Below, piece after piece: positions 15,489-30,761 of a stretch of 64,000 bases of DNA (positions are counted from its first letter, which is position 1; each line of letters opens with the position of its first letter). The stretch spans positions 992,001 through 1,056,000 of the forward strand of contig OY759353.1 of assembly GCA_963662315.1 (NCBI GenBank), given 5' to 3'. This stretch comes from Geopsychrobacteraceae bacterium (lineage in GTDB: Bacteria; Desulfobacterota; Desulfuromonadia; Desulfuromonadales; Geopsychrobacteraceae). Made by a program: the position numbers and the translations under genes. Below the pieces are notes generated by a model. The model saw only the letters and a program-made list of their open reading frames with translations, made no database searches and was not told the origin of the DNA.

Positions 15489-15540
15489 GTTCTGTTTGAC
15501 GAGTCATGTGCCCCTGGCGCCGCCCACCGGCGTCGGCACA

Positions 15541-15582
15541 AAAACCGGGCCACCTGCGACAGTCCTTGTCGCCTGTGGCCCG
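15541..15582 (-). terminator. Intrinsic terminator downstream of the major pilin
   Basis: Minus strand CGGGCCAC...GTGGCCCG stem (inner GCGACA/TGTCGC) followed by GTTTTT. Confidence 0.6.
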
Positions 15583-15670
15583 ATACGTGGCCGGAGCGGG
15601 TTCGTTTTGGTTACTTTCCCTGGGAAGGAATGGGCGGTCCGGCCAGCCGCCCGGTGAAGACTAACTGTTA

Positions 15671-16669
15671 TTAGATCGTGTTACGGGTACCATCCCATTC
15701 GCCCAATTCTTCTTCTTTGGTATCACCAGCGCCGTCAACGACACCGACGAATAGGACTTGGTCGACTGCGGTAGGAGCAACCCAAGCACCTGCAGTCACT
15801 TCAGCTTCAGCTACCTTGAACAATCCAATAAAACGATTATATTGATCGGCGTTTACATGTCGATAAACCGGTACGGAAGTCATTGCACCTAAGTTACCGG
15901 TATTAAAAAGACTTGAAGACGGCCCAAAACCAACAGCCATAAGAACAGGCGCCTTGGTTCCGTCGGCAGGAACCGTACCACCAGGACTGGTCATATTGGT
16001 ACCATCAAAGGTAGCATCGTCATACTCACCCGGGCCAAGAATCCGCTCTACAGCACCCGACCAATAAACAAGGTTTGCCATATCAGCAACAGCGACACTA
16101 GCGCCGCAACCGTTACCTGCTTCGCCGTTGAAAATATTACCGGCAACAACGGCATTGCCCCGATTAGAGATTGTGTCCTGAAGAGCAGTACTGGCGCAAT
16201 CAGCAGTCAAAACTGAACCGTCACCATAGTCAGGTGTAGCCTCATCAATAACGCGCAGAGACTCCATGCCGATTTCTCCCATAACTGTATCGACGTCTGT
16301 GATCAGGCCACCAACCACAACATCTCCGATTCCAAGGATGTCACCATCAGCATTTGGCAGAAGCGCAGTCGCCAAAGGAGCAGCAGCAGAAGCATCCGCT
16401 ACATACATCAGTGAGTCCAGATTGTTCGGGTAAACATTGTGCTGCAGAACACGGAAGGTATTAACTCCCTTGTTCAGCTCATCCATCATGGCTACGTGAG
16501 CAGCTGCAGCGGCGCGGGCGTCGGTGTCCTGCAGGGCCACGGTAGCGGTACCGGCGATTGCTGCCAGAATGGCGACAACGACCAGTAATTCGAGCAGGGT
16601 GAACCCGCGATTGTTGTTTTTGCTTTTCAGCTTTTTCAGACGTTTCAACAAAAATTCACGACCTAACAT
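15671..16669 (-). CDS. Unusually large probable major pilin
   Basis: G|FTLLELLVVVAIL; basic leader; first pilin of the operon and followed by a terminator. ATG 16669 has an AAGGA RBS; alternative start 16717. Confidence 0.85.
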   Translation of the reverse strand: MLGREFLLKRLKKLKSKNNNRGFTLLELLVVVAILAAIAGTATVALQDTDARAAAAAHVAMMDELNKGVNTFRVLQHNVYPNNLDSLMYVADASAAAPLATALLPNADGDILGIGDVVVGGLITDVDTVMGEIGMESLRVIDEATPDYGDGSVLTADCASTALQDTISNRGNAVVAGNIFNGEAGNGCGASVAVADMANLVYWSGAVERILGPGEYDDATFDGTNMTSPGGTVPADGTKAPVLMAVGFGPSSSLFNTGNLGAMTSVPVYRHVNADQYNRFIGLFKVAEAEVTAGAWVAPTAVDQVLFVGVVDGAGDTKEEELGEWDGTRNTI

Positions 16670-16719
16670 TTTTCCTTTTCCTTTCAGCTTTAGGTTGCAT
16701 TTACGCCTTACCATCATGT

Positions 16720-17010
16720 AAGGCAGGTTGATTAAAGCCGAAGTGCCTCACCCACAGAGACCGCCTTTCGGTGGCACCAGATGGTTGACATCTGGAAACA
16801 TGCGTACTCTTTTGTCGCCCGCCGCGCAGGAGGCTTAAGCCCACGCTTTTAAGCAACTTATCTTTTTCTTGACCTAGGAGATGTCACACCTGCCCCCCTC
16901 CTGCACCTTCGGGCATGACCGGCTGCGTGGCCCCCTGCCACCGCAGCCTTTGTTTGTTTCGCGTGCACGGCTGAAATTACCAGCCTGCTTAAGCATTGAG
17001 GGGCTTAAGC
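16720..17010 (-). promoter_or_regulatory. Highly structured intergenic leader before the major pilin
   Basis: Hairpins at 16743-16776, 16777-16795, 16921-16948, 16968-16985 and 16987-17010; repeated GCTTAAGC. Confidence 0.45.
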
Positions 17011-17223
17011 TTATTTTGCCGTGGCCGGTTTTGCAGCCACGGCCGGATTATGAAAGTCGAGAACATAACGATATTGTTTTCCACAATGCACGATGACCTC
17101 TTTTTGACCGCGTCGCAAAATCTTCATTTCGATACGGATTTCCCCGTAGCCGTCATGCCTGAACAACTCGTCGTAGAGCTGCTCGATCCGTTTCATCACT
17201 TGCCGATGGGTTCCTTCTTCCAT
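17011..17223 (-). CDS. 70-aa basic leader protein of the pilus operon (HemP/YezD-reminiscent)
   Basis: GAGGA RBS; HDGYGEIRIEMKILRRGQKEVIVHCGKQYRYVLD; first ORF after the CRP-type promoter. Confidence 0.75.
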   Translation of the reverse strand: MEEGTHRQVMKRIEQLYDELFRHDGYGEIRIEMKILRRGQKEVIVHCGKQYRYVLDFHNPAVAAKPATAK

Positions 17224-17392
17224 AACTATCTTACTGTCCTCTTATTGAACTGCTGCTTCCTGCTGATCCCTGCCCGCAAAAAACAATCTATTTGGCTTAC
17301 TTTTCATAACGATCTGCTGCCGCCTATTCCGTAAATTGCGACATTCACCCCGGCAGCATAATCTCGTTGGCCGTTGTGCCTGACGTGGACTG

Positions 17393-17435
17393 AATGTAAT
17401 TGAAAACGAATATCAAAACCGTGATCAGAAACACA
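17393..17435 (-). promoter_or_regulatory. CRP-type box plus -10 for the pilus operon
   Basis: Minus strand TGTGT-ttctga-TCACG, 21 nt, then TACATT. Confidence 0.6.
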
Positions 17436-17524
17436 CTTTGCATTTTTTTTGGTTATAATTTTCAAATATTTACTGAACGCCAATGATAATTTTATACCCA
17501 TAAAACCGTCGCTTTCTAAAGAAT

Positions 17525-17567
17525 CGTGATCAGCGTCACGGATTCAAATTTGCGCTTCAGCTATCCT
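17525..17567 (+). promoter_or_regulatory. CRP-type box plus -10 for the Rid/imelysin operon
   Basis: CGTGA-tcagcg-TCACG, 21 nt, then TATCCT. Confidence 0.65.
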
Positions 17568-17663
17568 TCTGCCTGCGACATTCATTCATAACTATTCCGC
17601 TATCGTCCTCCCCCCTACGGGAGATCTTTTTTCCTCCTTTACGATGCGGACTTAGTATTCATC

Positions 17664-18836
17664 ATGATCAATTACGAACACCTGTCATTTAACGACGTCA
17701 ATATCACCTGCTCACACTATTGCCGGAATTCCGTCAGCGAACGCCACCTGGCTATCTCCTGCCCTGCCCGGACAGGTTTTAAAGCCCAGCTTGAAGGGAT
17801 CGAAAGTGCGTTAAGCGCTTTTATCGCCGGCCATTTACTGCCCCCGGGCTGCGTCATTTTCGGCCGCCTTTTCGTTAGCGACCATGCCAATCAGCAACGG
17901 GAGATCAGCGCCTTCGCCATTCGCCTAGCCGATTGGTGTGGCGGCTGCGCGCTGTCGGTTATTCAGCAGCCACCCCTTTCTTCAGCAAAGGTTGAGGCCT
18001 GGTTTTATCTGGTTGATGACGCTGGTAAAGTCCAGGCAAAAACCAGGAACGGCGATGAACTGATCCTCCAGCGCAATGGCTACCGCCATTTATGGCACTG
18101 CTCACAAATGAACGGTTGCCGACCAGGCAACGCTGCAGCCCAGACCACCGCGGTGCTGAATGCTTACGCCAGCGAACTGCAACAGCATGGCGGCACGCTG
18201 AAGGATAACTGCATCCGCACCTGGTTGTATGTACGGGATGTTGATTTTCACTACCAGGGGGTGGTCGATGCGCGGCGGGAACTGTTTACGGAACACGACC
18301 TGACCAAGGAGACGCACTTTATCGCCAGTACAGGGATTGAGGGGCGTCATGGCCACACCGCTGCTAACCTGGTGATGGACAGCTATGCCCTGCTGGATAT
18401 TTCCCCCGGGCAGGTTCAGTTCCTGCAGGCACCGGAATTTCTTAACCCGACCCATGAATACGGGGTCACCTTTGAACGCGCCACCAGCGTCGACTTTGGC
18501 GATCGTCGTCATATCTATATCAGTGGTACAGCCAGCATCGATAAATATGGGGCGGTCGTACATCCGGAAAACATTGAGCTGCAGCTGGAACGCACGCTGG
18601 TCAATATTGAAGAACTGCTGAAAAGTGCCTCGGCAGGAATAACCGACCTGGCTCAGATCATTGTCTACCTGCGCGACCTGGCAGACGCAGAAACAGTGGA
18701 AAGGTTTCTGGCCCAGCACTATCCCAAGCTACCGCGAGTACTGGTGCTGGCACCGGTATGCAGGCCTGGCTGGCTGGTGGAGATCGAAGGGATTGCGATT
18801 TGTGATGTTTGTCAGGATGACTATAATAATTTTTAA
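17664..18836 (+). CDS. Multi-domain Rid/YjgF-family protein (FkbO/Hyg5-like)
   Basis: CIRTWLYVRD, FIASTGIEG, YGVTFERAT, IYISGTASID, APVCRPGWLVEIEG. Confidence 0.85.
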   Translation: MINYEHLSFNDVNITCSHYCRNSVSERHLAISCPARTGFKAQLEGIESALSAFIAGHLLPPGCVIFGRLFVSDHANQQREISAFAIRLADWCGGCALSVIQQPPLSSAKVEAWFYLVDDAGKVQAKTRNGDELILQRNGYRHLWHCSQMNGCRPGNAAAQTTAVLNAYASELQQHGGTLKDNCIRTWLYVRDVDFHYQGVVDARRELFTEHDLTKETHFIASTGIEGRHGHTAANLVMDSYALLDISPGQVQFLQAPEFLNPTHEYGVTFERATSVDFGDRRHIYISGTASIDKYGAVVHPENIELQLERTLVNIEELLKSASAGITDLAQIIVYLRDLADAETVERFLAQHYPKLPRVLVLAPVCRPGWLVEIEGIAICDVCQDDYNNF

Positions 18837-18856
18837 CCGGAAGGAGAACTTTTGCG

Positions 18857-19942
18857 ATGAAATTTTCGGCCTATGCTGTGCGCCGGCTGCTGGTAGCCGG
18901 GCTAGGTTGTACTTTAACCCTTTTAACATTGATTCCCGCGACCGCCCTGGCCGGGGAACAGGAACAGCTTGACACATTAGCCGCCATGGCTAATAGCTCG
19001 CTGAACGCTGAGCTTGAGGACCTTAAGCAAAGTACCGCTGAATTAAACACGGCAATTATGCAATTGTGCAGCAGGCCGGATACTGAGCATTTAGAGCAGG
19101 CCCGACAGAACTGGCGCAAGGCATTTCTGGCGTTACGCCGGGCTGAACCCCTGAGACTGACAAAGGAGCTGAAAAAAACCCGTGAACTGACCCGGATCAC
19201 CAATGCTATTGTTCTTGACGCCGCATTAGCTGATGCACAGCTGGATGACCTGCTGGCTCAGAAGGACAGCCGCGGATATCTGGCCATAGAACAGATGCTG
19301 TTCGCCCCGCAGGACGCCGCCGCAGCAGCCACACCCAGACGCTGCGCTCATTTGCAGAAGACGGCAGCAGAAATAAACGCCTGGGCGCAGCAGGTGCTTG
19401 AACAGTGGCAGAACGAACTGGCACCAGGCCTGCGCAATGCCGGCGATGGCCAGCCCTACCTTACCGCGAATGAACCGCTGAACCTGCTCATGGCCGGTCT
19501 GCTGAACAGTAGCGAGTGGATGCTGCGTGACCGGATCAGCGTACCAAGTGGTTTTTTTGAAACTGCGGCAAAACCGGAACTGCTGGAGGGGGGCGTGAGC
19601 CACAGTACGGTTGACGCTTACAGTGCAACCATCGATGGCATGACTGCCGTTCTTGGTACTCCAGACAACCAGGCCGGCCTGCTTTACCTGGTAGCCACCC
19701 AGGACGGGCTAATATCAGCCAAAGACCCGGGACTGGCCGCAGACATTGTCGATCAGAGCAATGACATCAGGGAAGTTCTTGCGCACCTGCAAGGGGCAAA
19801 ACTCCCCCTTGTCGAAAGTTTGGCCATCAATAACAAGGTGCTCAAAAAACTGTACAAAGAAACCAATCAGCTGCAGAAGTTGCTGATCAAGGCATCCCTG
19901 GTGCTGGAACTGAATGTCACCGAACCGGCCAAGTTTGAATAA
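18857..19942 (+). CDS. Imelysin-family (peptidase M75/IrpA-like) iron-regulated protein
   Basis: Signal peptide, LEQARQNWRKA, RGYLAIEQMLF (GxxxxE motif); all-helical. Confidence 0.75.
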   Translation: MKFSAYAVRRLLVAGLGCTLTLLTLIPATALAGEQEQLDTLAAMANSSLNAELEDLKQSTAELNTAIMQLCSRPDTEHLEQARQNWRKAFLALRRAEPLRLTKELKKTRELTRITNAIVLDAALADAQLDDLLAQKDSRGYLAIEQMLFAPQDAAAAATPRRCAHLQKTAAEINAWAQQVLEQWQNELAPGLRNAGDGQPYLTANEPLNLLMAGLLNSSEWMLRDRISVPSGFFETAAKPELLEGGVSHSTVDAYSATIDGMTAVLGTPDNQAGLLYLVATQDGLISAKDPGLAADIVDQSNDIREVLAHLQGAKLPLVESLAINNKVLKKLYKETNQLQKLLIKASLVLELNVTEPAKFE

Positions 19943-19988
19943 GTTAAGCCCCTGGCCCATCTGTTTGCAGATGGGCCAGGGGCTTAAC
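19943..19988. terminator. Perfect 21-bp hairpin between convergent genes
   Basis: GTTAAGCCCCTGGCCCATCTG-tttg-CAGATGGGCCAGGGGCTTAAC. Confidence 0.8.
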
Positions 19989-20080
19989 ATTCATTGTGGT
20001 GATCGCTGGTTCAGGATCCCGACGCCGTGAACCTGAACCAGCGATTCCCTCCTCGTTTTATGCCTTCCGTCACAGAAAAA

Positions 20081-20410
20081 TCAGTGGCACGAACAGGTGG
20101 CGCAGCGGCCACAACATTTATGCTTGTGAGCACCAAGGGCTTTCCCCACAGCATGTTCAATGTCCGGCCAGTCCCACCGGCAATAAACGGCCTTAAGCCC
20201 CCGCTGGTCGACTTTTTCCTTAAATGCTTTTCCGGCGTCTGACTCCAAGTACTCCTCCCGGAGCACCACCAGGCCAATTTTTTCAGGAATCTCATCACCC
20301 GCCAGCAGTTCCGATGTCCCGTTCCAGTAAATAGTGTCTGCAACTCCCAACTCGGCCAGTCGTGGAAAATGAGAATCAGCGAGACCTGCTCCAACAATGA
20401 GTGCTGTCAT
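20081..20410 (-). CDS. DUF2325-like protein with Cys/His tail
   Basis: MTALIVGAG...LAELG...YWNG...IPEKIGLVV...VYCRWDW; ATGA-coupled to flavodoxin; ends HKHKCCGRCATCSCH. Confidence 0.7.
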   Translation of the reverse strand: MTALIVGAGLADSHFPRLAELGVADTIYWNGTSELLAGDEIPEKIGLVVLREEYLESDAGKAFKEKVDQRGLKAVYCRWDWPDIEHAVGKALGAHKHKCCGRCATCSCH

Positions 20411-20913
20411 AAATGGCCCTCCGCCTCCTCGGACACCTGGCGGATCCATGCTTCAATCCGCCCGGCAGTCAAATGGGATTGATTTTCGAAATCGAGGGCC
20501 AGGCCAAGAAACTGGTCCCCTTCTACAGCAGCCGATGCGGCATGATCGTAACCTGCGGTTGACCACTTGCCGATAATTGTTGCCCCGGCGGCCTCTGCCG
20601 CGTCATGAATCGGCCTGATACCATCAACAAAGGTATCAGCGAAAAGGGCCTGATCCCCCAGACCGAACAGCGCAACTTTCTTCCCCTTCAGATTAGCCTC
20701 GCTCAAATTTTGAAGGCTGGCACTCCAATCGTCCTGAAGGTCACCAAGTCCCCAAGTGGATGTTCCCAGCAGCAGCAGATCATAGTTTTCATAGTCTGCT
20801 GTAGCGACAGTTTCGACCTCATGTACCGTTGACCCAGCCATCAACCCGCCAATTTGCCTGGCGACAGTTTCGGTATTTCCAGTTGTGGATCCATAAACAA
20901 TTCCTGTTTTCAT
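20407..20913 (-). CDS. fldA: Long-chain flavodoxin
   Basis: YGSTTGNT, GTSTWGLGDLQDDW, ALFGLGDQ, FLGLALD. Confidence 0.95.
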   Translation of the reverse strand: MKTGIVYGSTTGNTETVARQIGGLMAGSTVHEVETVATADYENYDLLLLGTSTWGLGDLQDDWSASLQNLSEANLKGKKVALFGLGDQALFADTFVDGIRPIHDAAEAAGATIIGKWSTAGYDHAASAAVEGDQFLGLALDFENQSHLTAGRIEAWIRQVSEEAEGHL

Positions 20914-20963
20914 GCGTTATTCTCCAGACTGTGCAAGTACGGTGATTAAAATTATTCCGGATA

Positions 20964-20982
20964 GATAATGAAAAGCATTATC
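20964..20982. promoter_or_regulatory. Fur box
   Basis: GATAATGAAAAGCATTATC versus consensus GATAATGATAATCATTATC; upstream of flavodoxin. Confidence 0.85.
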
Positions 20983-21025
20983 AATTTAAAAGAATTCCAT
21001 TTCTTCTGCTGTGACCACGGTCACA
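20983..21025 (-). promoter_or_regulatory. CRP-type box plus -10 for flavodoxin 1
   Basis: Perfect TGTGA-N6-TCACA (21010-21025), 21 nt, then TAAATT. Confidence 0.75.
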
Positions 21026-21336
21026 GTAAGGCTTTCCTACTGATTTTTTTACTATCCGGATCAATCAGCCCGTTGTCGAGGCCGATGCATATTGAGCAGA
21101 AGGGTTATCCACCGGTCAATCAGGAAGCTTCAACCACAAAGGGGAAGGACCGTAACGACTGGAGATGGGAATAACACACCGCTGTTTCTGCCAGCGGCCC
21201 CCCCCCTTTACCTTGATTGTGGCGGTCATGGCTTCGACCGGGGGTAAATACAGGCTTACTGAAATTTTTCTGAGCATAGCGCGTCCATAACTATATGTGA
21301 TAGATCGCTGACTGTGCAGCGCCTGATGCGTAACCG

Positions 21337-21648
21337 TTACTTTTTCTTGGCTGCCGCACGCTTGGATGCTTTGAGCGGATTGACTTTCTGCGCCTGGACC
21401 TGACTGATCCCCAGCCATTCCTGACTCAGTTGCCCCTGCTCCGCCAGGAACTTCTCTTTATTTTCAACGCGCTGAAAAGCAATAATCAGCTCCCAACTGC
21501 CGTACTTCATCTGATCCGGGCTGATGGCGACATAGGGGATGTCCTTTCCCTCGAAATCCTGAAGGATATCGGCGACAGGACGGGTGCCCCTGAAGATGGT
21601 TTTGCTTTCATACTTAATGGCAATTCCCAAAATTGATTGTTCCTGCAT
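21337..21648 (-). CDS. Hypothetical protein
   Basis: GAGGAG RBS and protein-like composition; no family recognised. Confidence 0.6.
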   Translation of the reverse strand: MQEQSILGIAIKYESKTIFRGTRPVADILQDFEGKDIPYVAISPDQMKYGSWELIIAFQRVENKEKFLAEQGQLSQEWLGISQVQAQKVNPLKASKRAAAKKK

Positions 21649-21916
21649 AGTGATAAGATCTCCTCGCTTGAAATTAGGTTTTTTCGGTGCAGTATGCCGA
21701 GATATAGACCGTTACACACCAGGGAATTGAATTTCGTTTTCAAGTGCAACGGTGTACGCCTCCGCACAAGCCCTTGATTTTCTTGCCACAACGAAAAACA
21801 TCTCGTTTCTAATCTGAAAACTTCATTATTGCCATCCAGAGTTTCTGGATGGTACCCAAATAGATGGGTTCTTTCCGGAAAGGACCCTTTAGTCGTTTTC
21901 GTAAGAAATAGCTCTT

Positions 21917-22657
21917 TTACAGACAGATTGATGCACTGTTTTTGACCTCCAGACAAGAGCAATCACAATCATGCTGACCAAACTCATCCATCAACTTGTA
22001 TAAATGACCTATTGCGGAAATACTGACACAGCCCTTATGATAAGGAATTCCGTAACTTTTTGATAACTTGGTCAAGCAACGAGACAACGTTTCCCTGGCC
22101 ACACCCAACTCCTGAGCGGTTAAACTGATGGGGCGAAAATCAACAACTCCGCAGTGGAGGTTATCACGTTTCAGTCGATAGATAAGATACCCGACAGTCA
22201 ACAGCTCAACCCGGCAGCAACGCACAAGGGTTCGCATATGGCGCTCCTGCTCAACCTCTATGGCCATCAGTCTGAAGATGTTATCCATAATCGTTTTCTG
22301 ACTGAGCGCAATTGATTGAAAATCAGTATAATGCCAATATAAAAGTGACGATTTTGAAGTTCCGACAAAAGAACTTTCACAATAATGTTCTGTCATCAAC
22401 GATGAAAAACAGAAGAAATCCCCCGGGAAAAGTCGCCTGACCAGCAGATCCTGACCATCCGGAGCCTGTTTATACATGCGCATCTCACCACCGATAACAC
22501 AATGTACTTTTCGCGTGAGGTCATCCCCCTCAAGACGTTGCCAGCGCCCTTTCATAACGTATTTTCGGCCACTGCGGATCAGAGCCTGAATCACTGTCTC
22601 TTCGGCATCCCTGAGTAACAGGGATTGTTGAAGAGCATCTCTAACTGTTGATAACAT
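21917..22657 (-). CDS. Crp/Fnr-family transcriptional regulator, Cys-rich
   Basis: cNMP-like barrel (GEMRMYKQAPDGQDLLVRRLFPGDFF) and HTH AQELGVARETLSR; CC and CDCSC clusters. Confidence 0.85.
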   Translation of the reverse strand: MLSTVRDALQQSLLLRDAEETVIQALIRSGRKYVMKGRWQRLEGDDLTRKVHCVIGGEMRMYKQAPDGQDLLVRRLFPGDFFCFSSLMTEHYCESSFVGTSKSSLLYWHYTDFQSIALSQKTIMDNIFRLMAIEVEQERHMRTLVRCCRVELLTVGYLIYRLKRDNLHCGVVDFRPISLTAQELGVARETLSRCLTKLSKSYGIPYHKGCVSISAIGHLYKLMDEFGQHDCDCSCLEVKNSASICL

Positions 22658-22707
22658 AAAGCAATTCTTTCTATTAAATGCTGATTATGGCAGTCGTGAG
22701 GATTTAT

Positions 22708-23313
22708 TCAAACCACACGAAGGTAGCCACGAGATGGTCGGTACTGCTGATACTGGCATGAAATACTTGTCGAACGGGTATATTCCTTTTTAATTTCAAG
22801 GCCTTTACCCCTAACTTGATGTTGCAAAACCAGCATCCAAAGCTGTAATCGATGTTGAGTTAATTTGCGTTGATTCACTTCGTCGATAGCCAGACCAACA
22901 AAGTTGTTCTTTTGCAAAGCGGCTGAAGACTGAAAGTGGTAGCCGGCGTTGGTCCAACTACCAATATGCCTAGCTCCTGTCTCCTGCGCAGCATCAAAAA
23001 GAGCTCTCATGCCATCCACAAAGGTAGCCCCGTGACCAATCTGGTCACCAAGACCAAACAACGCAAAATCCCGACCACGGAGATTGGCCTGACGCAGACA
23101 TTCGATAGAATCGAGCCAGTATTCATGTAAATCTCCGCTACCGACCGTAGGTGTTCCCATAATGAGAAGATCATGGGCCTCCAAATCAGCGCGGGTCACT
23201 TTTTGAGCTTCAAATAAGTGAACGTCAGTGATCATTGCCGCCATCTGTCGGGCAACGCGATAAGTAGTGCCATCCGGCAGAGAACTGCCCGCATATACAA
23301 TGGCCGTTTTCAT
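22708..23313 (-). CDS. Divergent second flavodoxin with C-terminal extension
   Basis: GTPTVGSGDL, ALFGLGDQ, FVGLAID; altered phosphate loop AGSSLPDGTT; ATG 23313 follows GGAGG. Confidence 0.85.
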   Translation of the reverse strand: MKTAIVYAGSSLPDGTTYRVARQMAAMITDVHLFEAQKVTRADLEAHDLLIMGTPTVGSGDLHEYWLDSIECLRQANLRGRDFALFGLGDQIGHGATFVDGMRALFDAAQETGARHIGSWTNAGYHFQSSAALQKNNFVGLAIDEVNQRKLTQHRLQLWMLVLQHQVRGKGLEIKKEYTRSTSISCQYQQYRPSRGYLRVV

Positions 23314-23342
23314 TGAGATTCCTCCTGACTCCAACCATTAAT

Positions 23343-23399
23343 GATAATGAGTTTCATTTTTACCATCAATATCACTCAAATTATGTGACTTCAGGCACA
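23343..23399 (-). promoter_or_regulatory. Fur-like box and CRP-type box upstream of the flavodoxin 2-crp operon
   Basis: GATAATGAGTTTCATTTTT (23343-23361) and TGTGA-cttcag-GCACA (23384-23399). Confidence 0.65.
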
Positions 23400-23463
23400 T
23401 TAACGAAATTTTTAATGAAATTTTGAAGATCTGACTATCTTCTGTCTCCCCCATAACCATTCG

Positions 23464-23655
23464 CTAAGCGGAGAAGAGACCGGGGATGGGAATATTGATC
23501 AGGGTCGACTTACCAATACCGTTCTTTCCCTATAGACCGAACACAGTCCCGGTCCGAACTTCAAGAGATCCCCTCTGGTAATTAGTTTTGCGCCCGTAAC
23601 TGTAGTAAAGATCTCGGATTGTAACGACCGCACCAGGATCAGGATTGGGACTCAT
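23464..23655 (-). pseudogene. ABC-transporter ATPase N-terminal remnant
   Basis: MSPNPD...VTIRDLYYSYG...GTVFGL*GKNGIGKSTLINI: Walker A directly after an in-frame TAG, then truncated. Confidence 0.75.
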
Positions 23656-23791
23656 CTTTGGAATCTTTTTGTTGTGTCGAAGACGCAGGGCAGCTTTTAG
23701 TTCCACAGCTGCAACCACGATTTTTAAACAGTTTGCGGTATAGGTAGAAAAGAGCAATAAAGAAAATAGCAGTGAGAAATAGTTCTTCCAT
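23639..23791 (-). CDS. FeoB-associated Cys-rich small membrane protein (50 aa, absent from ORF track)
   Basis: MEELFLTAIFFIALFYLYRKLFKNRGCSCGTKSCPASS...; TM helix plus GCSCG..SC. Confidence 0.8.
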   Translation of the reverse strand: MEELFLTAIFFIALFYLYRKLFKNRGCSCGTKSCPASSTQQKDSKDESQS

Positions 23792-23844
23792 AAGCAGCTT
23801 TCCAAAAACTCCGGACCGACTTGCGCCGGTCCGGAAGCAGTGAT

Positions 23845-24663
23845 CTATTTCATATCTTTGGCCTGAACCCAGATAACAGCATCCTGGCTCAGTTCCTTAC
23901 CTTTGTATTCGGTATCACTACCGGCACCAAGTGCGCAGAAGCCCCACCACCCAGCTTTAGGAATACCAAAGGTAAACTTGCCATCCTGATCAGCTTTAAT
24001 GCCCATGGTGATGAAGCTGTCCTGAGGGGCGTCAACATAGGAAGAACCTGTAGCATTAGCAGCCAGATCAACGTCGCGATTCAGGTACTCAACTTCCAAT
24101 TCAGCAAATGGTACGGGCTTACCGTTACTCATAACGATACCGGTAAAAGTGGAACCGGCCCAGATAGCATATGGCTTGGTCAATGGTACGATTTCAGCTT
24201 TTAACCCAAGAGTCGCATCCCAATCGGTGGGCGCACCGGCAACGTTAACGATCATCTTGGTAATCTGCTGAATGTAAGCATCTTCGTTAGCTTCAAAATA
24301 TGGAGCAGGTTGAAGAATAAACAGATGATCACCCATTTTTTGGGCTTTATATGTAGATGAGAAAGCAGCTCCGGAATTATGATGGCCTTTAAAAGTGATC
24401 GGTTTCAGAGTACTGAGCAGATCTTTTTTCTTCTCTTTGTTAATCACATAAAATTCTTCTACTGCTGCCAGCTTATCAGTATCGTGTTGTTTACCCATAT
24501 CCATGGTGTGCTCATCAGCAAAGGGATGGGTGAAGACTTCGCGCAGTTCGATCTTCTGGCCTTTATTCAGGGCCGATTCAGGGGTGTACAGCATCTGGAA
24601 GTGAGCAGACGCATTACCTGCGATAAGAGCTGCAGCCACAGTCAAAATTGCAATTTTTGTCAT
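23845..24663 (-). CDS. DUF4198 (NikM-like) periplasmic metal-binding protein
   Basis: ASA|HFQMLY, FTHPF, AEIVPLTKPY, NGKPVPFAELEVEY, GWWGF; ATG 24663 follows GGAGG. Confidence 0.9.
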   Translation of the reverse strand: MTKIAILTVAAALIAGNASAHFQMLYTPESALNKGQKIELREVFTHPFADEHTMDMGKQHDTDKLAAVEEFYVINKEKKKDLLSTLKPITFKGHHNSGAAFSSTYKAQKMGDHLFILQPAPYFEANEDAYIQQITKMIVNVAGAPTDWDATLGLKAEIVPLTKPYAIWAGSTFTGIVMSNGKPVPFAELEVEYLNRDVDLAANATGSSYVDAPQDSFITMGIKADQDGKFTFGIPKAGWWGFCALGAGSDTEYKGKELSQDAVIWVQAKDMK

Positions 24664-24694
24664 GTTTTTCTTTCCTCCCTGGAAATTTTTGGTT

Positions 24695-25003
24695 TTATTC
24701 AACAATATCCTTGCCATCAACGTAGACCTTGTGTCCTTCTCCGGCATCAAAGACGGCCTGGTAATCACCAGCCGGTTTTTTAAAATTTACTTCGCTGAAC
24801 TCACTCATTTTCGTTTCAACGATTTTGTTGCCATTGACTTCAACATAAAATTTGACACCGCTGGCGCTACTGCCATCACTGAACCCGCCTTCGCAGGTTA
24901 CAGTTCCGTCACCTTCGTCGAAACATGACATAAGCGCGCTATGAGCTGAAGCGTTGCTAACAACAAACAGACTGATAACAAGGCTTAATACTATCCTTTT
25001 CAT
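24695..25003 (-). CDS. Small secreted protein with N-terminal His (paralog of 28117-28425)
   Basis: ASA|HSALMSCFDEGDGTVTCEGGFSDGSSA...VFDAGEGH. Confidence 0.85.
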   Translation of the reverse strand: MKRIVLSLVISLFVVSNASAHSALMSCFDEGDGTVTCEGGFSDGSSASGVKFYVEVNGNKIVETKMSEFSEVNFKKPAGDYQAVFDAGEGHKVYVDGKDIVE

Positions 25004-25162
25004 AATGACCTCTTTTTTCTAGTAAGTTGGTTAGTTGCTATTCGATGATTCGAATTAACAACGAATATGTTTCTGATTTGGAAAGATGAAAAATTTTCCC
25101 CAGACTCAAGAAATCAAGCATTTACGCCGAGCTAGTGAAAATTGGCGCCTTTCGGACAGAAA

Positions 25163-27598
25163 CTAATTGGTGCGACTGGCCTGCCAGCCAAACTGCTTGG
25201 ATTTAATTATTCCCAGCACTAATGCCATTAAAACAGTGACCACGTAAAAGTTCCGCATCAGTTCCAGGCCGTTCCAGCCGAAGTTAACCGCCAGGGAAAA
25301 AAACAAGGCGGAAACAGCGATTCCTAAGGACATAGGGAAGCCGATGGCAAACAGCATCCAACGATAGGAATTGGCCTGTATCTTGACGACCACCATCGTG
25401 GCGATACAAGGTGGTGTCAGAATCATAAAAATAAGCATTGACGCCGCATGGATCGGAGTATAAGCACCGTCCTGAGCCATTGATTCTTCTGGCGTAAGTT
25501 CGGTTTTCCCCTGTTCATAAATAGAACCTAGAGTGGCAACGGCACTTTCACGGGCAGCAAAAGAACTCAGAAACGCCACATTGATCCGCCAATCGAAACC
25601 ACAGAATTGGCTGACTGGCTCCAGAGCCCGACCAAGCATGCCCAGGAACGAGTTGGTTATCTTTTCATTTTTGATATCCATCTGCAGCTGCTTGTTGGTT
25701 TTGGACAAACGCCGCAACTCACGATTAAGTTTTTCCGCTTCAGGATTATCCGGGCGAACAAGGGCAAACAATGTCGGAGAAGCCTGCTGGAATTTCTGGT
25801 CAAGGGCTGCGACAGCTTCTTTAGAACCAGCGAGCATGCGATGGGCTTTATAATCATCGTAGAGATTAACCAGTTGCCCTAACTCTGCAGGCTCATCAAT
25901 CGCATCCGCGTAACTGGTGCCACCAGCTTTTTTGGCAAAAGCGCTCATGGCGGCATCAGCACGGCTACTGAATTGTGTCATTTTTTCATCAGCAACACCT
26001 GGATACTGGAGCAGCACAAAAAGAATGACAGCGACAGCCATAACGACAGTGACAACTTTTTTAACGTAAACCCAAACCCGCTGAGTCGCCCTTAGAGCCA
26101 CACCCTTAAAAGTCGGCAGATGGTAGGTGGGCAGTTCCATAACAAAGGGAGCGGTCTCTCGATTGACCAGAACCGTAGCAGTCAGCAGCCGCGCAACGAT
26201 CAAAGCAATAAAGAGCGTTACCGTTGAGATGAAAAACATCATCAAAGCCATTTCTGTTTTAAAAAAAGCACCTAGTAACAAAGTATAAAAGGGAACCTTG
26301 GCAAGACAGTTCATGTAAGGAACTGTCAGGATGGTGGCCAGCCGGGCCCGGTCATCAGCTATGCCCTTAGTGGCCATAATTCCCGGCACTGCACAACCAC
26401 CCACAAAGGCACCACCAAGCACTAAAGGCAGGGTTGATTGCCCATGCAGACCGTAGCGCTTGAAAACGCGGTCAAGAATAAATGCCATGCGTGGCATGTA
26501 ACCGACATCTTCAAGAATGGCGATTAAGGCAAACAGAATAAAAAAGATCGGGACATAATTGAGTAGAGCAATAACACTGTTGGTCATCCAGATCCCAAAG
26601 TCGGTTACCAACGGAACATCGACAAAGGCTCCTGATGGAAGAAAGGAAAGGATCTTATTTTTCAATGCGGCAAGGAATGGCCAGGTATAGTCAGTAAGTT
26701 TGTAGCCCCAGACAATAGCCAGTTCATAAATCAGATAGATCACCAGCCCAAGAACTGGAAAAGCAAACCACCGATTAAGAAGCACGCGATCAATGCGAGC
26801 TGTAAAGGTATCCTGCTTGACACTCTTTTCATCGACCACTTTATGGTAAAGGATATGGGCGTTGTCATAGCGTAATCCGGCAATGGCCTGATCAATATCC
26901 AGATCATGAATAGCATGAATTCTTCGGGTCAGGTCTTTGATTGTTTCAGCACTAACTCCGGTGCGTTCAAGAACGCTCTGATCCCCTTCAAGGCATTTGA
27001 CTGCCAGCCAACGCTGACAAACTTCGGCATTAATGTCGATCTGATCGCCAAGCTCCTTGATATAGGGTTCGAGTTCACCGTAATTGAGCCGAAAAGGTTC
27101 AGTGATACGTTCTTTTGATGCGGAAATGACGGCATCAAGCAACTCGGCTTTGCCTAATTTTTTTGCCCCGACAGTTTTTACCGTACGAACATTGATGAGC
27201 TCCTGCAGACGCGTATCAGAAACAACCAAACCGCGACCTTCGGCAATATCCATCATATTAAGGACAACGATAACCGGCTTACCCAACTCTAGTAACTGGA
27301 GGGTCAGCAACAAGCTGCGACGTAGGCATGAGCTGTCGACAACATTGATAATGACATCAATTTCACTATCAATAAGAAAGTCTTTGGCAACCTTCTCTTC
27401 CAGAGAATAGGTACTAAAGGAATAGGTTCCGGGCAAATCCACCAGTTCGATAGACTGGCCCTTATACTTCAGGCTTGCTGTTTTCTTATCAACGGTGACG
27501 CCGGGATAGTTGGCGACGTGCTGGTTAACCCCCGCCAGCATATTAAAAATTGTTGATTTGCCACAATTTGGCTGCCCTGCCAGTGCTGCTCTTATCAT
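25163..27598 (-). CDS. feoB: Ferrous iron transporter FeoB
   Basis: GQPNCGKST, NYPGVTVD, DLPGTYS, NMMD, LEDVGYMPR, FVMELPTYHLP, PPC. Confidence 0.97.
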   Translation of the reverse strand: MIRAALAGQPNCGKSTIFNMLAGVNQHVANYPGVTVDKKTASLKYKGQSIELVDLPGTYSFSTYSLEEKVAKDFLIDSEIDVIINVVDSSCLRRSLLLTLQLLELGKPVIVVLNMMDIAEGRGLVVSDTRLQELINVRTVKTVGAKKLGKAELLDAVISASKERITEPFRLNYGELEPYIKELGDQIDINAEVCQRWLAVKCLEGDQSVLERTGVSAETIKDLTRRIHAIHDLDIDQAIAGLRYDNAHILYHKVVDEKSVKQDTFTARIDRVLLNRWFAFPVLGLVIYLIYELAIVWGYKLTDYTWPFLAALKNKILSFLPSGAFVDVPLVTDFGIWMTNSVIALLNYVPIFFILFALIAILEDVGYMPRMAFILDRVFKRYGLHGQSTLPLVLGGAFVGGCAVPGIMATKGIADDRARLATILTVPYMNCLAKVPFYTLLLGAFFKTEMALMMFFISTVTLFIALIVARLLTATVLVNRETAPFVMELPTYHLPTFKGVALRATQRVWVYVKKVVTVVMAVAVILFVLLQYPGVADEKMTQFSSRADAAMSAFAKKAGGTSYADAIDEPAELGQLVNLYDDYKAHRMLAGSKEAVAALDQKFQQASPTLFALVRPDNPEAEKLNRELRRLSKTNKQLQMDIKNEKITNSFLGMLGRALEPVSQFCGFDWRINVAFLSSFAARESAVATLGSIYEQGKTELTPEESMAQDGAYTPIHAASMLIFMILTPPCIATMVVVKIQANSYRWMLFAIGFPMSLGIAVSALFFSLAVNFGWNGLELMRNFYVVTVLMALVLGIIKSKQFGWQASRTN

Positions 27599-27855
27599 AC
27601 TGGGTCGACCTCAATCAGTGCAGCTTCGGCACGACGCAGGGAAATCAGATAATTGTGAATGGTTATTTCAAGAGGATCCTTCAATGGTGCACTTCTGACC
27701 ATCATGACCTCCACCCCAGGAACAAAGCCCATATTTATCAATTTGGCTTTCAACGGCCCCTTCGCCCGGCAAGCCCGGATAAAAGCCCGTTGATTTTTGC
27801 TCAGCTCAGATAAAGACATAACCTGCTGAGGTTGTTTTAATGCACACTCGTTCAT
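27595..27855 (-). CDS. feoA: Ferrous iron transport protein FeoA
   Basis: KLINMGFVPG, APLKDPLE, SLRRAEA; ATGA-coupled to feoB. Confidence 0.95.
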   Translation of the reverse strand: MNECALKQPQQVMSLSELSKNQRAFIRACRAKGPLKAKLINMGFVPGVEVMMVRSAPLKDPLEITIHNYLISLRRAEAALIEVDPV

Positions 27856-27900
27856 AAAGTGACCTTTCTTACTAAAAGAGATTTGCTGTGACAGAGGAGA

Positions 27901-27943
27901 ATTATGCAGAAGGAAAAGTTATAGTTCTGTGACTCAGATCACT
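27901..27943 (-). promoter_or_regulatory. CRP-type box plus -10 for feoAB
   Basis: Minus strand AGTGA-tctgag-TCACA, 21 nt, then CATAAT. Confidence 0.7.
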
Positions 27944-28116
27944 GATCTTGAAATTATTTTTAAAAATCAATTTCACTTAGCGCACGGGCGATTAATGAAT
28001 GGATTTCTTTACAGAAAATATATTCATAAAGATTGATTTTAAGAATGGACAAACAAAATCAGACAGGCTTACTTCTATGCCTTTATGTTAGAAGTAAACC
28101 TGCGATCAAAACAAAA

Positions 28117-28425
28117 TTACTCAAATATATCTTTCCCGAAAACTGTCACCTGGTGCCCCGGACCAGCATCAAAAACGACCTTGTAATCTCCATCGGGTTT
28201 GGAAAAGACGAACTCCCCTTCTTTAGATATTTTCCCACGGATAAGAGTTTTATCATCAAGTTGACGAACAAAAATCCGCACTCCAACTGCGGAGGATCCG
28301 TCGGAAAAACCACCCTCGCAAGACACAGTTCCATCGCCATTATCAAAGCAGGAACACAAGGCAGAATGGGCACTTGCCCACGACGGAATCAAGAGAAGAA
28401 AACACACAATAATGATCTTCTTCAT
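28117..28425 (-). CDS. Small secreted protein with N-terminal His (paralog of 24695-25003)
   Basis: ASA|HSALCSCFDNGDGTVSCEGGFSDGSSA...VFDAGPGH. Confidence 0.85.
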   Translation of the reverse strand: MKKIIIVCFLLLIPSWASAHSALCSCFDNGDGTVSCEGGFSDGSSAVGVRIFVRQLDDKTLIRGKISKEGEFVFSKPDGDYKVVFDAGPGHQVTVFGKDIFE

Positions 28426-28427
28426 GA

Positions 28428-29183
28428 CTATTTTGTCGTTTCAAAAGTCAGAGTAAAAACATGCCAGGCTATCTTTTTACCAGCCAAGGGCTTGTAATAA
28501 GCACCGGAAATAATTTGCAACCCCGGAGGCCCAACTTTAATCATCACGGGTTCCAGGTCAGTCCTTTCAGGCTGCTCTGGCTCCTCGATCGACGAATCGG
28601 AAGAAAGCGCCACCTTGGACCCCTTGACAGGCATAACCTGCCCTTCAAAGTAAAACTGAACCGGAAGCAGATCACCCTCTTTCAATTTGGTCGGATCCAT
28701 TAAGGGAACAGCTTCGGTACGCATTCCCAATGGCTTTGACAACCAAGGCTCCCAACGGCTAATGTGCTTCGAATATTTGTAAGAGACTCCCTCCTCGACA
28801 ATTGTCAGCCCCTTTTCCACACCTGCGGGTTGCTTAAGCTGTTTCCATCCATCCTCCTCGGTGTGATACCAATACCAGTTATCAAATACGATGCTTAAGG
28901 CCGGATAATCATCGGTCAGGTAGGCGAAGGCCTGATCATTCTTGCTTACAGGCTCAATTTCCGTCTTCCACCCGGTATCGGTATAGCCGATCAGACTGAC
29001 AATCCTCTCCGCAGGATAAGGATCAGTATGCCCCGGGTGTCCATAGAGAACGTGTACCTTGTCCTGTTCTTGCTCCATCCACAAGTTATGTGCCTGAACT
29101 GATGCGACCATAAAGGTCGATAGCAGGCACAACGCGAAAAAACATTTTAGAACCCTTTTTTGCATGGCTGACTCCTTCGTCAT
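28428..29183 (-). CDS. DUF4198-family periplasmic protein
   Basis: VQA|HNLWME, YGHP, KYSK, EAVPLMDP..LKEGD.LPVQ, TLTFE. Confidence 0.8.
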   Translation of the reverse strand: MTKESAMQKRVLKCFFALCLLSTFMVASVQAHNLWMEQEQDKVHVLYGHPGHTDPYPAERIVSLIGYTDTGWKTEIEPVSKNDQAFAYLTDDYPALSIVFDNWYWYHTEEDGWKQLKQPAGVEKGLTIVEEGVSYKYSKHISRWEPWLSKPLGMRTEAVPLMDPTKLKEGDLLPVQFYFEGQVMPVKGSKVALSSDSSIEEPEQPERTDLEPVMIKVGPPGLQIISGAYYKPLAGKKIAWHVFTLTFETTK

Positions 29184-29299
29184 TTTATTAGAGAGGGAAA
29201 TTCATTAGATGAGTACGCAGATCGCTTACAATTCCTTTTGCCATATAGGCACTGTGCGCTTACTGAGTACTCAAGCGAAAATGTACGTGATCGGGCGGG

Positions 29300-29342
29300 A
29301 TTATAGAGCAACAGAAAACCATAATCTGTGACGATTGTCATA
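29300..29342 (-). promoter_or_regulatory. CRP-type box plus -10 for the DUF4198 operon
   Basis: Minus strand TATGA-caatcg-TCACA, 21 nt, then TATAAT. Confidence 0.7.
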
Positions 29343-29495
29343 GATTATGAATTTCTTTTTCAATATTTTCATAGCACTATGTTTCATGAGCGGGCTCAAG
29401 TGATTTTATGTGAGACCCTTTTTTTATCTGCCAGAAAATTGCTCAACATCTGATATTCCTTAGTCGCAGCAGGATATCCTAGCCAGGATCTTAAA

Positions 29496-30761
29496 ATGAA
29501 TAAACAATCACGCTATAAAATGTACAAAAAGAGAAATCAACACCTACAGATTAAACAAGAAATACAGCAAATAACGCAATTTTCACCCACCTCGCATTGT
29601 GAGACAAAGAACAAGAACTTCCTCCAGGTTGATCTTGGGGACTATCGGATACATCACGTATTTGATGGCTTTCTGGATATCCTGCTCAATCTTCTGGCTC
29701 ACCGTGATTATTCAACTTATCTACATTCATTACGTGTGGCGGAGATCTCCCGCCGTATCGGCCGCAACCTTTTCCTGACCGAAGATGAAGTGATCTTATT
29801 GGAACATGGTGGGCTTATTCATGATATCGGTAAAATATCTATCCCGGATGACATATTACTCAAGCCTGGCCGTTTTTCGAATCAAGATCGCAATATTATG
29901 AATACTCACTCTGTGCTTGGCGCACAGCTATTCTACGGCAAAGGCATTGACGAACGCCTGGCAGAAATTGCCTTGAACCATCACGAACGACTTGATGGCA
30001 GCGGCTACCCTAACGGACTGCAAGGAGATCATATTTCCCTCTATGCACGAATTATTGCGGTCGCCGATGTTTATGAAGCGCTTATTGCCAAACGCCCCTA
30101 CAAGGAAAGCTTCAACCGTAAAACAGCTCTGGATAATCTGTGGCGCGATGTCGATGACGGTAAGCTGGAAGGCTCAATTGTCCTTGCACTTGAAAAGGTG
30201 ACCCTGTATTGGAATCCTTTAGAGATCAAGGGTCTATCTATTCCTGGACCTATTTTTCAGCTGGAGGACTTTCGCCGTTCAACCTATTTTCGTGAGCCGA
30301 TGAGCCCTTTCTATAACTACCGCTATCTCTTTACCCTTGAAAACAACCGAAAAATTCTCTTCAAACGTACATCCTACAGTTTACTGTCTATCTCATTTCT
30401 TCATCTTAAAATCCTAAACAGGGTAAAAGGCTACATTGAAACAGACCGGATTATAAACGCCTTTGGAGAACGGCTTCAGGAACATATCGATACTATTTGC
30501 GGCACACTATCATCACAGGGAGGCCAAACGCCCCTGCTGCTGAAAAAGGGGGCGGACTATGTCATCTACTGTCCTGACAACGGAAAATGCTGGCAACAAG
30601 TCCAACAAGCTATAGCGAATAGTATTAAAGAGGGTAAAGAGAAAAATCAGATCAGCTGTCTTTTGCATCACCGCAATTTTTCAGCAACTGTCCCCTTTGA
30701 GGACGCTTTGAATCAGCTTTTTGAAACGAGTGAATACAATGACCAAAAAATATGTTCGTGA
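29496..30761 (+). CDS. HD-GYP phosphodiesterase with degenerate C-terminal GGDEF-like domain
   Basis: HSLRVA, IHDIGKI, HHERLDGSGYP, VADVYEAL..RPYK; C-terminal EPMSPFYNYRY...KGADY. Confidence 0.9.
   Translation: MNKQSRYKMYKKRNQHLQIKQEIQQITQFSPTSHCETKNKNFLQVDLGDYRIHHVFDGFLDILLNLLAHRDYSTYLHSLRVAEISRRIGRNLFLTEDEVILLEHGGLIHDIGKISIPDDILLKPGRFSNQDRNIMNTHSVLGAQLFYGKGIDERLAEIALNHHERLDGSGYPNGLQGDHISLYARIIAVADVYEALIAKRPYKESFNRKTALDNLWRDVDDGKLEGSIVLALEKVTLYWNPLEIKGLSIPGPIFQLEDFRRSTYFREPMSPFYNYRYLFTLENNRKILFKRTSYSLLSISFLHLKILNRVKGYIETDRIINAFGERLQEHIDTICGTLSSQGGQTPLLLKKGADYVIYCPDNGKCWQQVQQAIANSIKEGKEKNQISCLLHHRNFSATVPFEDALNQLFETSEYNDQKICS

Follow-up and report, generated by a model that had tools for sequence, protein, structure and literature searches.

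Escherichia coli CRP reads DNA with residues R180, E181 and R185, and its class II sites are centred at -41.5. FNR carries an N-terminal cysteine (Cys) cluster and reads TTGAT-N4-ATCAA, and in the Bacillus-type Fnr the [4Fe-4S] cluster is located at the C-terminus. Both FNR and Fur reportedly control feoABC of E. coli, in work said to be that of Kammler et al. from 1993. For the delta-proteobacteria, the sections of PMC545781 (Rodionov et al. 2004) used here describe HcpR of Desulfovibrio, which was predicted by comparative genomics with the consensus TTGTGA-N6-TCACAA and with hcp-frdX and sulfate-reduction genes as targets; they also mention Arg180 of CRP-type regulators, in place of which the Desulfuromonas orthologue of HcpR has Ser or Pro, together with a TTGAC-type site. 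The same sections present a Fur regulon comprising feoAB, hypothetical porins and fur in Geobacter and Desulfuromonas and additionally flavodoxin, GGDEF and HD-domain genes in Desulfovibrio, with a 17-bp palindrome WTGAAAATNATTTTCAW as Fur box. Here we describe six TGTGA-N6-TCACA-like boxes and a Crp/Fnr-type regulator encoded in a 64,000-nucleotide (nt) stretch of DNA, which will be referred to as the window (positions 992001-1056000 of the contig), from a Geopsychrobacteraceae genome of the Desulfuromonadales (G000; 4.71 Mb, one contig, G+C content 48.9%). The boxes are likely to be operators of a small, Desulfuromonadales-restricted Crp/Fnr branch that acts as a class II activator, together with Fur, and responds to a signal other than cyclic AMP (cAMP).

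The initial annotation had located boxes at 17420, 17525, 21010, 23384, 27928 and 29327, each separated by 21 nt from a -10-like hexamer, with TAAAAA as the sixth, and all of this was recovered. The six 16-mers are present at these positions, and towards the gene a gap of exactly 21 nt (six of six) is followed by TACATT, TATCCT, TAAATT, TAAAAA, CATAAT or TATAAT. Box 21010 (21010-21025, minus strand, TGTGACCACGGTCACA) matches TGTGA-N6-TCACA without mismatch and has its -10 element TAAATT at 20983-20988. One mismatch each is found in box 23384 (23384-23399, minus strand, TGTGACTTCAGGCACA; TAAAAA at 23357-23362), in box 27928 (27928-27943, minus strand, TGTGACTCAGATCACT; CATAAT at 27901-27906) and in box 29327 (29327-29342, TGTGACGATTGTCATA), the last of which serves divergent promoters with TATAAT at 29300-29305 on the minus and TATTTT at 29364-29369 on the plus strand. 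The two remaining boxes are weak, namely 17420 (17420-17435, minus strand, CGTGATCAGAAACACA; TACATT at 17393-17398) and 17525 (17525-17540, plus strand, CGTGATCAGCGTCACG, with a GATT flank; TATCCT at 17562-17567). A 16-bp box followed by 21 nt and a -10 element places the box centre at approximately -41.5, the geometry of class II activator-dependent promoters, and yields predicted start sites. At the -35 position these promoters hold CAGATT, which agrees with TTGACA in two of six bases, and this poor match fits a dependence of the promoters on an activator. Sites, geometry, conservation, gene content and Cys pattern were all read from the sequences and their comparison.

Conservation was evaluated in seven genomes of the genus (G000-G006), with G001 and G002 as sister genomes. 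Orthologues of box 23384 are present in G001 and G002, those of box 27928 in G002 and G004, and the core of box 29327 is kept in G002 and G004. In an alignment of 16718-17663 (92% identity with G001, 71% with G002), the half-sites of boxes 17420 and 17525 are kept in both sister genomes with changed spacers in G002 (CGTGATCAAGAGCACA, CGTGACATATATCACG); TACATT and TAT..T are likewise kept. As half-sites are retained while spacers vary, the alignment indicates that the two weak boxes are very likely functional.

Beyond the genus, 17 homologue loci were examined (34-86% identity of the regulator), 16 of them from relatives and one being the locus of a paralogue in G000. These loci belong to Geopsychrobacteraceae, Desulfuromusa including Desulfuromusa kysingii DSM 7343, Desulfuromonadaceae and some metagenome-assembled genomes of Geobacteraceae. 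Three genomes of the genus encode an orthologue of the local regulator with 83-86% identity, and a more widespread type (34-41% identity) is found across the family and as the paralogue in G000. Boxes with at most one mismatch were detected in all 17 loci, and a perfect box in 12. A flavodoxin gene lies beside the regulator gene in 12 loci, in 11 of which a box stands just upstream of it, and feoA is preceded by a box in six. With gene labels taken from Pfam and BLAST, four canonical arrangements emerge: a box ahead of a porin-like gene (300-370 amino acids (aa), no Pfam match) and fur, ahead of DUF3793 and the regulator gene, ahead of flavodoxin and DUF2325, and ahead of feoA-feoB. Among 74 distinct boxes near the regulators, 43 are oriented sites, defined as a box with at most one mismatch and TANNNT at gap 21; they precede flavodoxin genes (11), porin-like genes (15, several followed by fur), DUF3793-regulator pairs (7), feoAB (4), an HD-GYP gene (1) and, for the remainder, unknown genes.

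The spacing itself is sharply defined in these relatives. When 49 perfect boxes were evaluated in both directions (98 orientations), TANNNT occurred at gap 21 in 32 and at each other gap from 10 to 34 in 0-4. An unbiased scan of 41 family genomes for TGTGAY-N4-RTCACA, 21 nt and TANNNT gave 28 matches in 16 genomes, and the reversed-pattern control gave none, so that the class II spacing proposed in the initial annotation is well supported at the sequence level. The genes following the 28 matches encode flavodoxin, porin-like proteins, DUF3793, FeoAB, HD-GYP/DUF4198 and HMA_2 metal-binding proteins, furthermore a P-type ATPase, one Usp and one AraC-type protein and a few unknowns. If the boxes were chance palindromes, or repressor operators without fixed promoter geometry, a count close to that of shuffled sequences would be accounted for, and in the window five sites with at most one mismatch do stand only marginally above shuffles (1.78 expected; 4 of 100 shuffles reach five). 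The sharp peak at gap 21 (32 versus 0-4), the 28 matches versus none in the control and the half-sites kept while spacers vary speak against this possibility, which we regard as highly improbable. Unlike the bare window count, the placement and conservation of the boxes are far beyond chance.

In the whole genome (4.71 Mb) the motif is rare: we counted 6 perfect and 83 one-mismatch sites, 89 in total, of which 19 were called intergenic. Four of these intergenic sites are clustered in an 8.3-kb part of the window, at distances of 57-151 nt before a start codon. A position weight matrix (PWM) was derived from the 49 distinct perfect boxes of related loci, none of which came from G000, and describes the extended palindrome AATCTGTGAY-N4-RTCACAGATT. 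Its best site in G000 is 2425593 (score 30.6), ahead of a second feoAB, followed by 2469100, ahead of an operon with a porin-like gene, DUF3793 and the paralogous regulator gene, and by 2466208, ahead of the flavodoxin-DUF2325 pair of the paralogue. Boxes 29327 and 27928 come next, with scores of 21.4 and 21.1 that are not independent of the matrix, and then 21010 (19.1) and 23384 (15.0); among non-coding sites box 17525 (11.6) ranks ninth and box 17420 (10.0) eleventh. Six of the top 11 non-coding sites of the 4.7-Mb genome are thus situated within the 12-kb stretch 17420-29342. At a threshold of 8 or above, 72 sites are found, and TANNNT at gap 21 accompanies six of them (2469100, 29327 in both directions, 21010, 17525, 17420 and one site inside a coding sequence), the background rate of TANNNT being 1.1% per position and strand. 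The genes after the high-scoring non-coding sites examined are feoAB, flavodoxin, porin-like, DUF4198 and similar genes, in a survey that included no search aimed at hcp.

The regulator gene (21917-22657, minus strand) forms an apparent operon with the flavodoxin gene at 22708-23334 (unit 21917-23334, minus strand) downstream of box 23384; this position and the RETLSR helix, both pointed out in the initial annotation, were confirmed in the sequence. The protein contains a cNMP-binding-type beta-roll domain (PF00027; 34.3 bits, cut-off 27.5), and its AlphaFold2 (AF2) model, with a mean predicted local distance difference test score (pLDDT) of 79.9, resembles GlxR, Mycobacterium tuberculosis (Mtb) CRP and Clr in Foldseek (template modelling (TM) score 0.72-0.76). 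On the strength of this model and the domain match, we assign to the regulator the two-domain fold of the Crp/Fnr superfamily. Its best sequence match in the PDB is Thermus CRP, which is weak (E-value 1.9e-6). The recognition helix reads ARETLSR, with R188, E189, T190 and R193 unchanged across all 15 aligned members; the R-E-x-x-x-R helix with which CRP specifies TGTGA is therefore present, as previously noted, in proteins whose boxes read TGTGAY-N4-RTCACA.

The effector domain tells a different story from CRP. All 15 sequences have C83, C147 and C233, and at least 90% have C93, C148 and C231, which places two Cys in the pocket, a CC pair at the end of the dimerisation helix (hinge) and a CxCxC motif at the C-terminus. 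In Thermus thermophilus CRP (4ev0), the residue opposite C93 in the alignment is the Arg of the ERSAS phosphate-binding cassette, which binds the cyclic phosphate of cAMP. This Arg of CRP sensu stricto is thus replaced by Cys, making cAMP an unlikely ligand, and the NCBIfam CRP equivalog model NF008732 gave no match (16.3 bits, cut-off 266). An ordinary global cAMP-CRP regulon of the enterobacterial style would likewise combine an RExxxR helix with class II spacing and a TGTGA-N6-TCACA consensus; yet the missing Arg, the low score of the equivalog model and the distribution of the sites (of the 89 close to the consensus only 19 are intergenic, and good sites are restricted to iron genes) leave such a regulon hardly credible. 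FNR was considered as well and rejected, since the sites are of the TGTGA type, no FNR-type N-terminal Cys cluster exists (no Cys before residue 53) and the NCBIfam Fnr model NF008365 remained below its cut-off (25.7 bits against 228). The regulator, which the initial annotation had called a Crp, is accordingly of the Crp/Fnr type and reads TGTGA as proposed but is not a cAMP-CRP; it is not CRP sensu stricto, not FNR and not a member of the HcpR group in the form described in the sections of PMC545781 cited above. From the sequence, the Cys pattern suggests a sensor that would respond to an Fe-S cluster, a metal, haem or thiol redox state. The clade is small: a word-indexed search gave 19 matches at E ≤1e-10, and a profile search of 1.84 billion representatives gave eight at E ≤1e-30, the scores falling off steeply beyond the fifth. 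TAQE-G-ARET-R and the hinge Cys recur in more distant relatives.

The paralogue (genome positions 2466407-2467126, outside the window) has 35% identity to the local regulator and lies in the ancestral context of porin-like gene, DUF3793, regulator, flavodoxin and DUF2325. These two are the only RETxxR proteins in G000; a third Crp/Fnr protein (622405-623097) has SETLSR and is the likelier HcpR-type regulator. The boxes might be bound mainly by the paralogue, as the ancestral type, with the local regulator being a diverged copy of narrower or different role. Both proteins carry ARET(L/F)(S/T)R, relatives possessing the ancestral type only have the same boxes before feoAB, flavodoxin, porin-like genes and fur, and the top-scoring sites of the genome belong to the second feoAB and to the locus of the paralogue itself. 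The window-type feoAB/DUF4198 island, however, accompanies the local regulator: an orthologue of DUF4198 was detected in G002 and G004, both of them with the local type, but not in G003, G005 and G006, which lack it, and the box of the local regulator operon is kept in G001 and G002. We therefore rate binding mainly by the paralogue as unlikely, but as a serious alternative to binding by the local regulator.

Several findings weigh against operators of a class II activator of this branch. Boxes 17420 and 17525 have two mismatches each and are of a CGTGA type, two of the six -10 elements (TAAAAA and CATAAT) do not conform to TANNNT, and the second feoAB, the best site of the genome, shows CAAGAT at gap 21. 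Intergenic status was derived from a crude longest-open reading frame (ORF) caller that mis-called two top sites, 2425593 and 2469100 being wrongly placed inside over-extended ORFs. The PWM was built from boxes pre-selected for a perfect core and included orthologous promoters of sister genomes, which is why the scores of boxes 27928 and 29327 lack independence. On the protein side, HTH_Crp_2 scores 16.5 bits in the window regulator, below the 27-bit Pfam cut-off (45.3 and 27.7 bits in homologues), the C-terminal Cys tail has a pLDDT below 50 in the model, and the paralogue carries Phe at the otherwise invariant C83 position, so that C83 is not essential in every member.

Fur boxes accompany the activator boxes. 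They had been announced for two promoters, and boxes with two mismatches each were found at 20968-20984 (ATGAAAAGCATTATCAA), overlapping the -10/+1 region of the flavodoxin promoter of box 21010, and at 23341-23357 (ATGATAATGAGTTTCAT), overlapping that of the flavodoxin-regulator promoter of box 23384; at both, the sequence thus shows the palindrome over the core promoter that characterises a Fur-repressed promoter. Fur-like boxes with three mismatches are located at 17400-17416 within the spacer of the box-17420 promoter, at 17449, at 27948 and 27960 directly ahead of box 27928 of feoA, and at 29347-29363 in the spacer of the plus-strand promoter of box 29327. The last of these is kept in G002 and G004, and the G002 copy is one mismatch from the consensus. 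In total, G000 contains 39 matches with at most two mismatches to the Fur consensus given in PMC545781. The second feoAB likewise has Fur boxes on either side of its Crp box, and Fur boxes stand ahead of DUF3793 at the paralogue locus. These findings support an interplay of Fur and the Crp-type regulator at shared promoters. The Fur-to-Crp cascade put forward in the initial annotation holds in so far as the regulator operon bears both a Fur box and a Crp box, which makes a Fur-gated, auto-activated cascade at this operon plausible. It is not one-way: with both signals on the regulator operon and fur downstream of a box in relatives, the wiring appears reciprocal.

Taken together, we propose that the regulator, keeping the DNA-reading residues R188, E189 and R193 of CRP, would read AATCTGTGAY-N4-RTCACAGATT approximately 41.5 bp upstream of the start site and act as a class II activator at promoters without a -35 element. 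What we infer here is activation, the choice between the two paralogues as the binding protein, and the kind of signal together with its sign. In relatives, the conserved core regulon would comprise flavodoxin-DUF2325, feoAB, the porin-like gene (with or without fur), and DUF3793 together with the regulator's own gene. In the window it would comprise two flavodoxin units, one with the regulator gene, feoAB, two DUF4198/NikL-like units, the FkbO-like/imelysin unit and a 70-aa ORF, with a divergent HD-GYP/GGDEF pair as a probable further member. Since the Fur boxes lie over the -10/+1 region or in or beside the spacer, expression would require both that repression by Fur-Fe(II) is lifted and that the activator is present. 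The signal would be other than cAMP and would be perceived through the Cys residues. Tentatively, this may be extended to a branch of iron or Fe-S-status sensors in which the CRP DNA code is kept and the pocket rebuilt with Cys, reciprocal with Fur and feeding into cyclic di-GMP (c-di-GMP) and possibly the pilus. The hinge CC and the C-terminal CxCxC would then hold a cluster or metal. In the iron homeostasis of Desulfuromonadales the regulator would act as the positive arm, with Fur boxes on its operon and, in relatives, its own box before porin-fur, and the HD-GYP/GGDEF promoter of box 29327 would pass iron status on to c-di-GMP and perhaps to the MshEN pilus ATPase.

The genes served by the boxes in the window are as follows. 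On the plus strand, downstream of box 17525, an FkbO/RidA-like gene (17664-18836; Pfam Ribonuc_L-PSP, 7e-16; 47 bits against TIGR04444 with a cut-off of 325) precedes an imelysin gene (18857-19942; Pfam Peptidase_M75, 1.3e-29). On the minus strand, box 21010 is followed by the unit 20081-20913, consisting of a flavodoxin gene (20407-20913; Pfam Flavodoxin_1, 9.9e-21) and a gene for a DUF2325 homologue (20081-20449). The latter protein ends in a Cys-rich tail and is 36% identical (E 9e-24) to its DUF2325 counterpart from the Desulfuromusa kysingii locus. Box 27928 precedes the minus-strand unit 23845-27855 with feoA (27595-27855), feoB (25163-27598), a gene for a small secreted protein resembling the NikL N-terminus (24695-25003) and a DUF4198 gene (23845-24768), the latter two of which may be co-transcribed with feoAB. 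Box 29327 is followed on the minus strand by a second DUF4198 gene (28428-29183) and a gene for a NikL-N-like small protein (28117-28425; unit 28117-29183), and on the plus strand by an HD-GYP gene (29496-30761) and a GGDEF gene (30721-31695), which are probably regulon members through the plus-side promoter. A class II regulon with feoAB, flavodoxin, imelysin and DUF4198 genes, as originally proposed, is thus supported by the promoter sequences; it takes in the two flavodoxin genes, the two DUF4198 units and, along with imelysin, the FkbO-like gene. A DUF4198 paralogue in G001 (42% identity) was considered as a further member and rejected; it has no box and adjoins a CbiM-like gene, which places a true nickel/cobalt system outside the regulon.

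Two observations concern the history of these units. The flavodoxin-DUF2325 unit with box 21010, together with a 103-aa ORF (21337-21648), is found between imelysin and regulator in G000 only (20011-21650), and in G001 the regulator directly follows imelysin; the stretch gives the impression of an ancestral unit that was inserted here as a copy. In G004 (L022:16488-16632), the orthologue of the 251-aa DUF4198 gene matches residues 1-28 and 230-251 only and appears to have suffered a large internal deletion, despite a perfect upstream box.

A further claim of the initial annotation concerned the complete type IV pilus operon on the minus strand (3155-16717), which encodes a secretin, a PilC-like protein, an MshEN-domain ATPase, a PilT-like ATPase, PilMNO-like proteins, pseudopilins and a 348-aa pilin. 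In the full form of that model Fur releases Crp, transcription starting at the box-17420 promoter continues past the 70-aa ORF as far as the pilin gene, and the filament would serve metal acquisition. Box 17420 and its -10 element do point towards the pilus operon on the same strand, no canonical intrinsic terminator was found in the minus direction from 17011 to 16717, and the block of pilus operon, 70-aa ORF, boxes, FkbO-like gene and imelysin gene is syntenic in G000, G001 and G002. The first gene downstream of box 17420 and TACATT, however, is not the pilin gene but the 70-aa ORF of unknown function (17011-17223, minus strand), which is 98.6% identical in G001 and has no match in Pfam or NCBIfam. 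Between the predicted start site and the pilin start codon (16717) there are about 670 nt, and a conserved 290-nt spacer with conserved blocks of its own separates the pilin gene from the 70-aa ORF. RNA folding of the 301-nt spacer between 70-aa ORF and pilin (z = -2.3, no terminator) was not decisive. A sigma-70/terminator scan of 16600-17700 gave three promoter-like sites versus 1.6 expected and nothing useful for pilin. In G048, a genome of another genus, the homologue of the 70-aa ORF is preceded by CGTGACCCCGGTCACA, 21 nt and TATAAA, and no pilus gene was found on the 2-kb stretch available. Pilus genes follow none of the 28 sites in the 41 family genomes and none of the 43 oriented sites near regulators. 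Finally, the pilus operon was found in three of the seven genus genomes (G000, G001, G002) and not in G003-G006, yet G004 has the regulator and the feoAB/DUF4198 island. The case for the type IV pilus operon as a regulon member is therefore weak, the claim was not upheld, and the full model as originally proposed is doubtful at best.

A more indirect connection is conceivable, in which iron acts through HD-GYP/GGDEF (box 29327) and c-di-GMP on the pilus ATPase. The pilus extension ATPase (7078-8712) contains MshEN, a c-di-GMP-binding domain. Upstream of the pilin gene, a sigma-54-like block on the minus strand (TGGCAGGGGGCCACGCA, TGGCAG...CGCA, approximately 16905-16945) is fully conserved; it was rejected as a sigma-54 promoter because the GG-to-GC spacing is 11 and not 10. 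The divergent leaders of the 70-aa ORF and the FkbO-like gene share an 11-mer (TGCGACATTCA, 17337-17347 and 17574-17584) and an 8-mer (CTATTCCG, at approximately 17324 and 17592), alike in plus-strand orientation, swapped in order between the leaders and both kept in G001 and G002. The 11-mer has six genome copies, all on the plus strand, versus about 1.1 expected per strand, and the two elements may be the site of another regulator or an RNA element. The leader of the FkbO-like gene additionally contains a terminator-like hairpin followed by a T-run (CTCCCCCCTACGGGAG, 17608-17633), kept with changes in G002 and without Rfam match, which may be an attenuator. An E-value-based Rfam search of 16650-17700 gave no match, so no known riboswitch is present in these long leaders.

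Elsewhere in the window, a seventh near-consensus box (TGTGACGAATATCCCA, 52195-52210, PWM 16.1) lies in a small-ORF region of hypothetical genes; it has no -10 element at gap 21 and a near-identical copy at genome position 4246777, and is probably part of a repeat and not an operator. A search of the whole window at Rfam gathering thresholds gave nothing but three RF02001 group II intron domains on the minus strand, distant from the locus (45990-46158, 48155-48323 and 50343-50450; 116, 110 and 43 bits), which are spaced by about 2.2 kb and represent repeated intron copies downstream of it.

Iron control in the metal-reducing Desulfuromonadales has so far been framed as Fur repression, in the sections of PMC545781 considered here, and the present analysis adds what appears to be a conserved dedicated activator at the same promoters, with sites at feoAB, flavodoxin, the porin-like gene and even fur. 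In the open full-text literature, RegPrecise and subscription journals lying outside this scope, we found no Crp/Fnr regulator of feoAB and flavodoxin for Desulfuromonadales or Geobacter, and no work on what DUF3793 or DUF2325 do in such a setting; PMC4344238 proved to be unrelated. The site grammar is strict enough for base-precise prediction of start sites. The protein is a clean case of a Crp/Fnr regulator with the CRP DNA code and an effector pocket swapped for cysteines, which makes it a candidate for a new sensor of iron, Fe-S or redox status that can be put to the test. A regulatory context is gained for DUF3793, DUF2325, DUF4198 with its NikL-like partners and the 70-aa ORF. Experiments are feasible, as the cultured Desulfuromusa kysingii DSM 7343 possesses the canonical locus.

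Among the described systems, HcpR as presented in the cited sections of PMC545781 is similar in being a delta-proteobacterial Crp/Fnr regulator with a CRP-like site predicted by comparative genomics, but the targets found here are feoAB, flavodoxin, porin-like/fur and DUF3793. The delta-proteobacterial Fur regulon described there contains the same kinds of genes that carry Fur boxes in our locus, whereas the account in those sections gives no Crp-type activator site at these promoters. As in E. coli feoABC, a Crp/Fnr activator and the Fur repressor would converge, and by analogy expression would be expected at low iron when the condition of the activator is met as well. In contrast to FNR, the regulator lacks N-terminal Cys, reads TGTGA and reaches 25.7 bits with the Fnr model, whose cut-off is 228. 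In layout, it resembles the Bacillus-type Fnr in that the candidate cluster ligands are located C-terminally and near the hinge and not at the N-terminus, but differs from it by the additional pocket residues C83 and C93. With E. coli CRP acting at class II sites it shares the fold, the RE...R residues, the TGTGA-N6-TCACA core and the distance of 21 nt between box and -10 element. It differs from CRP by the absence of the cAMP phosphate-binding Arg, the six conserved Cys and the failure of the NCBIfam CRP model. Its regulon, moreover, is small and does not extend beyond iron and metal genes, and its sites carry the extended flanks AATC...GATT.

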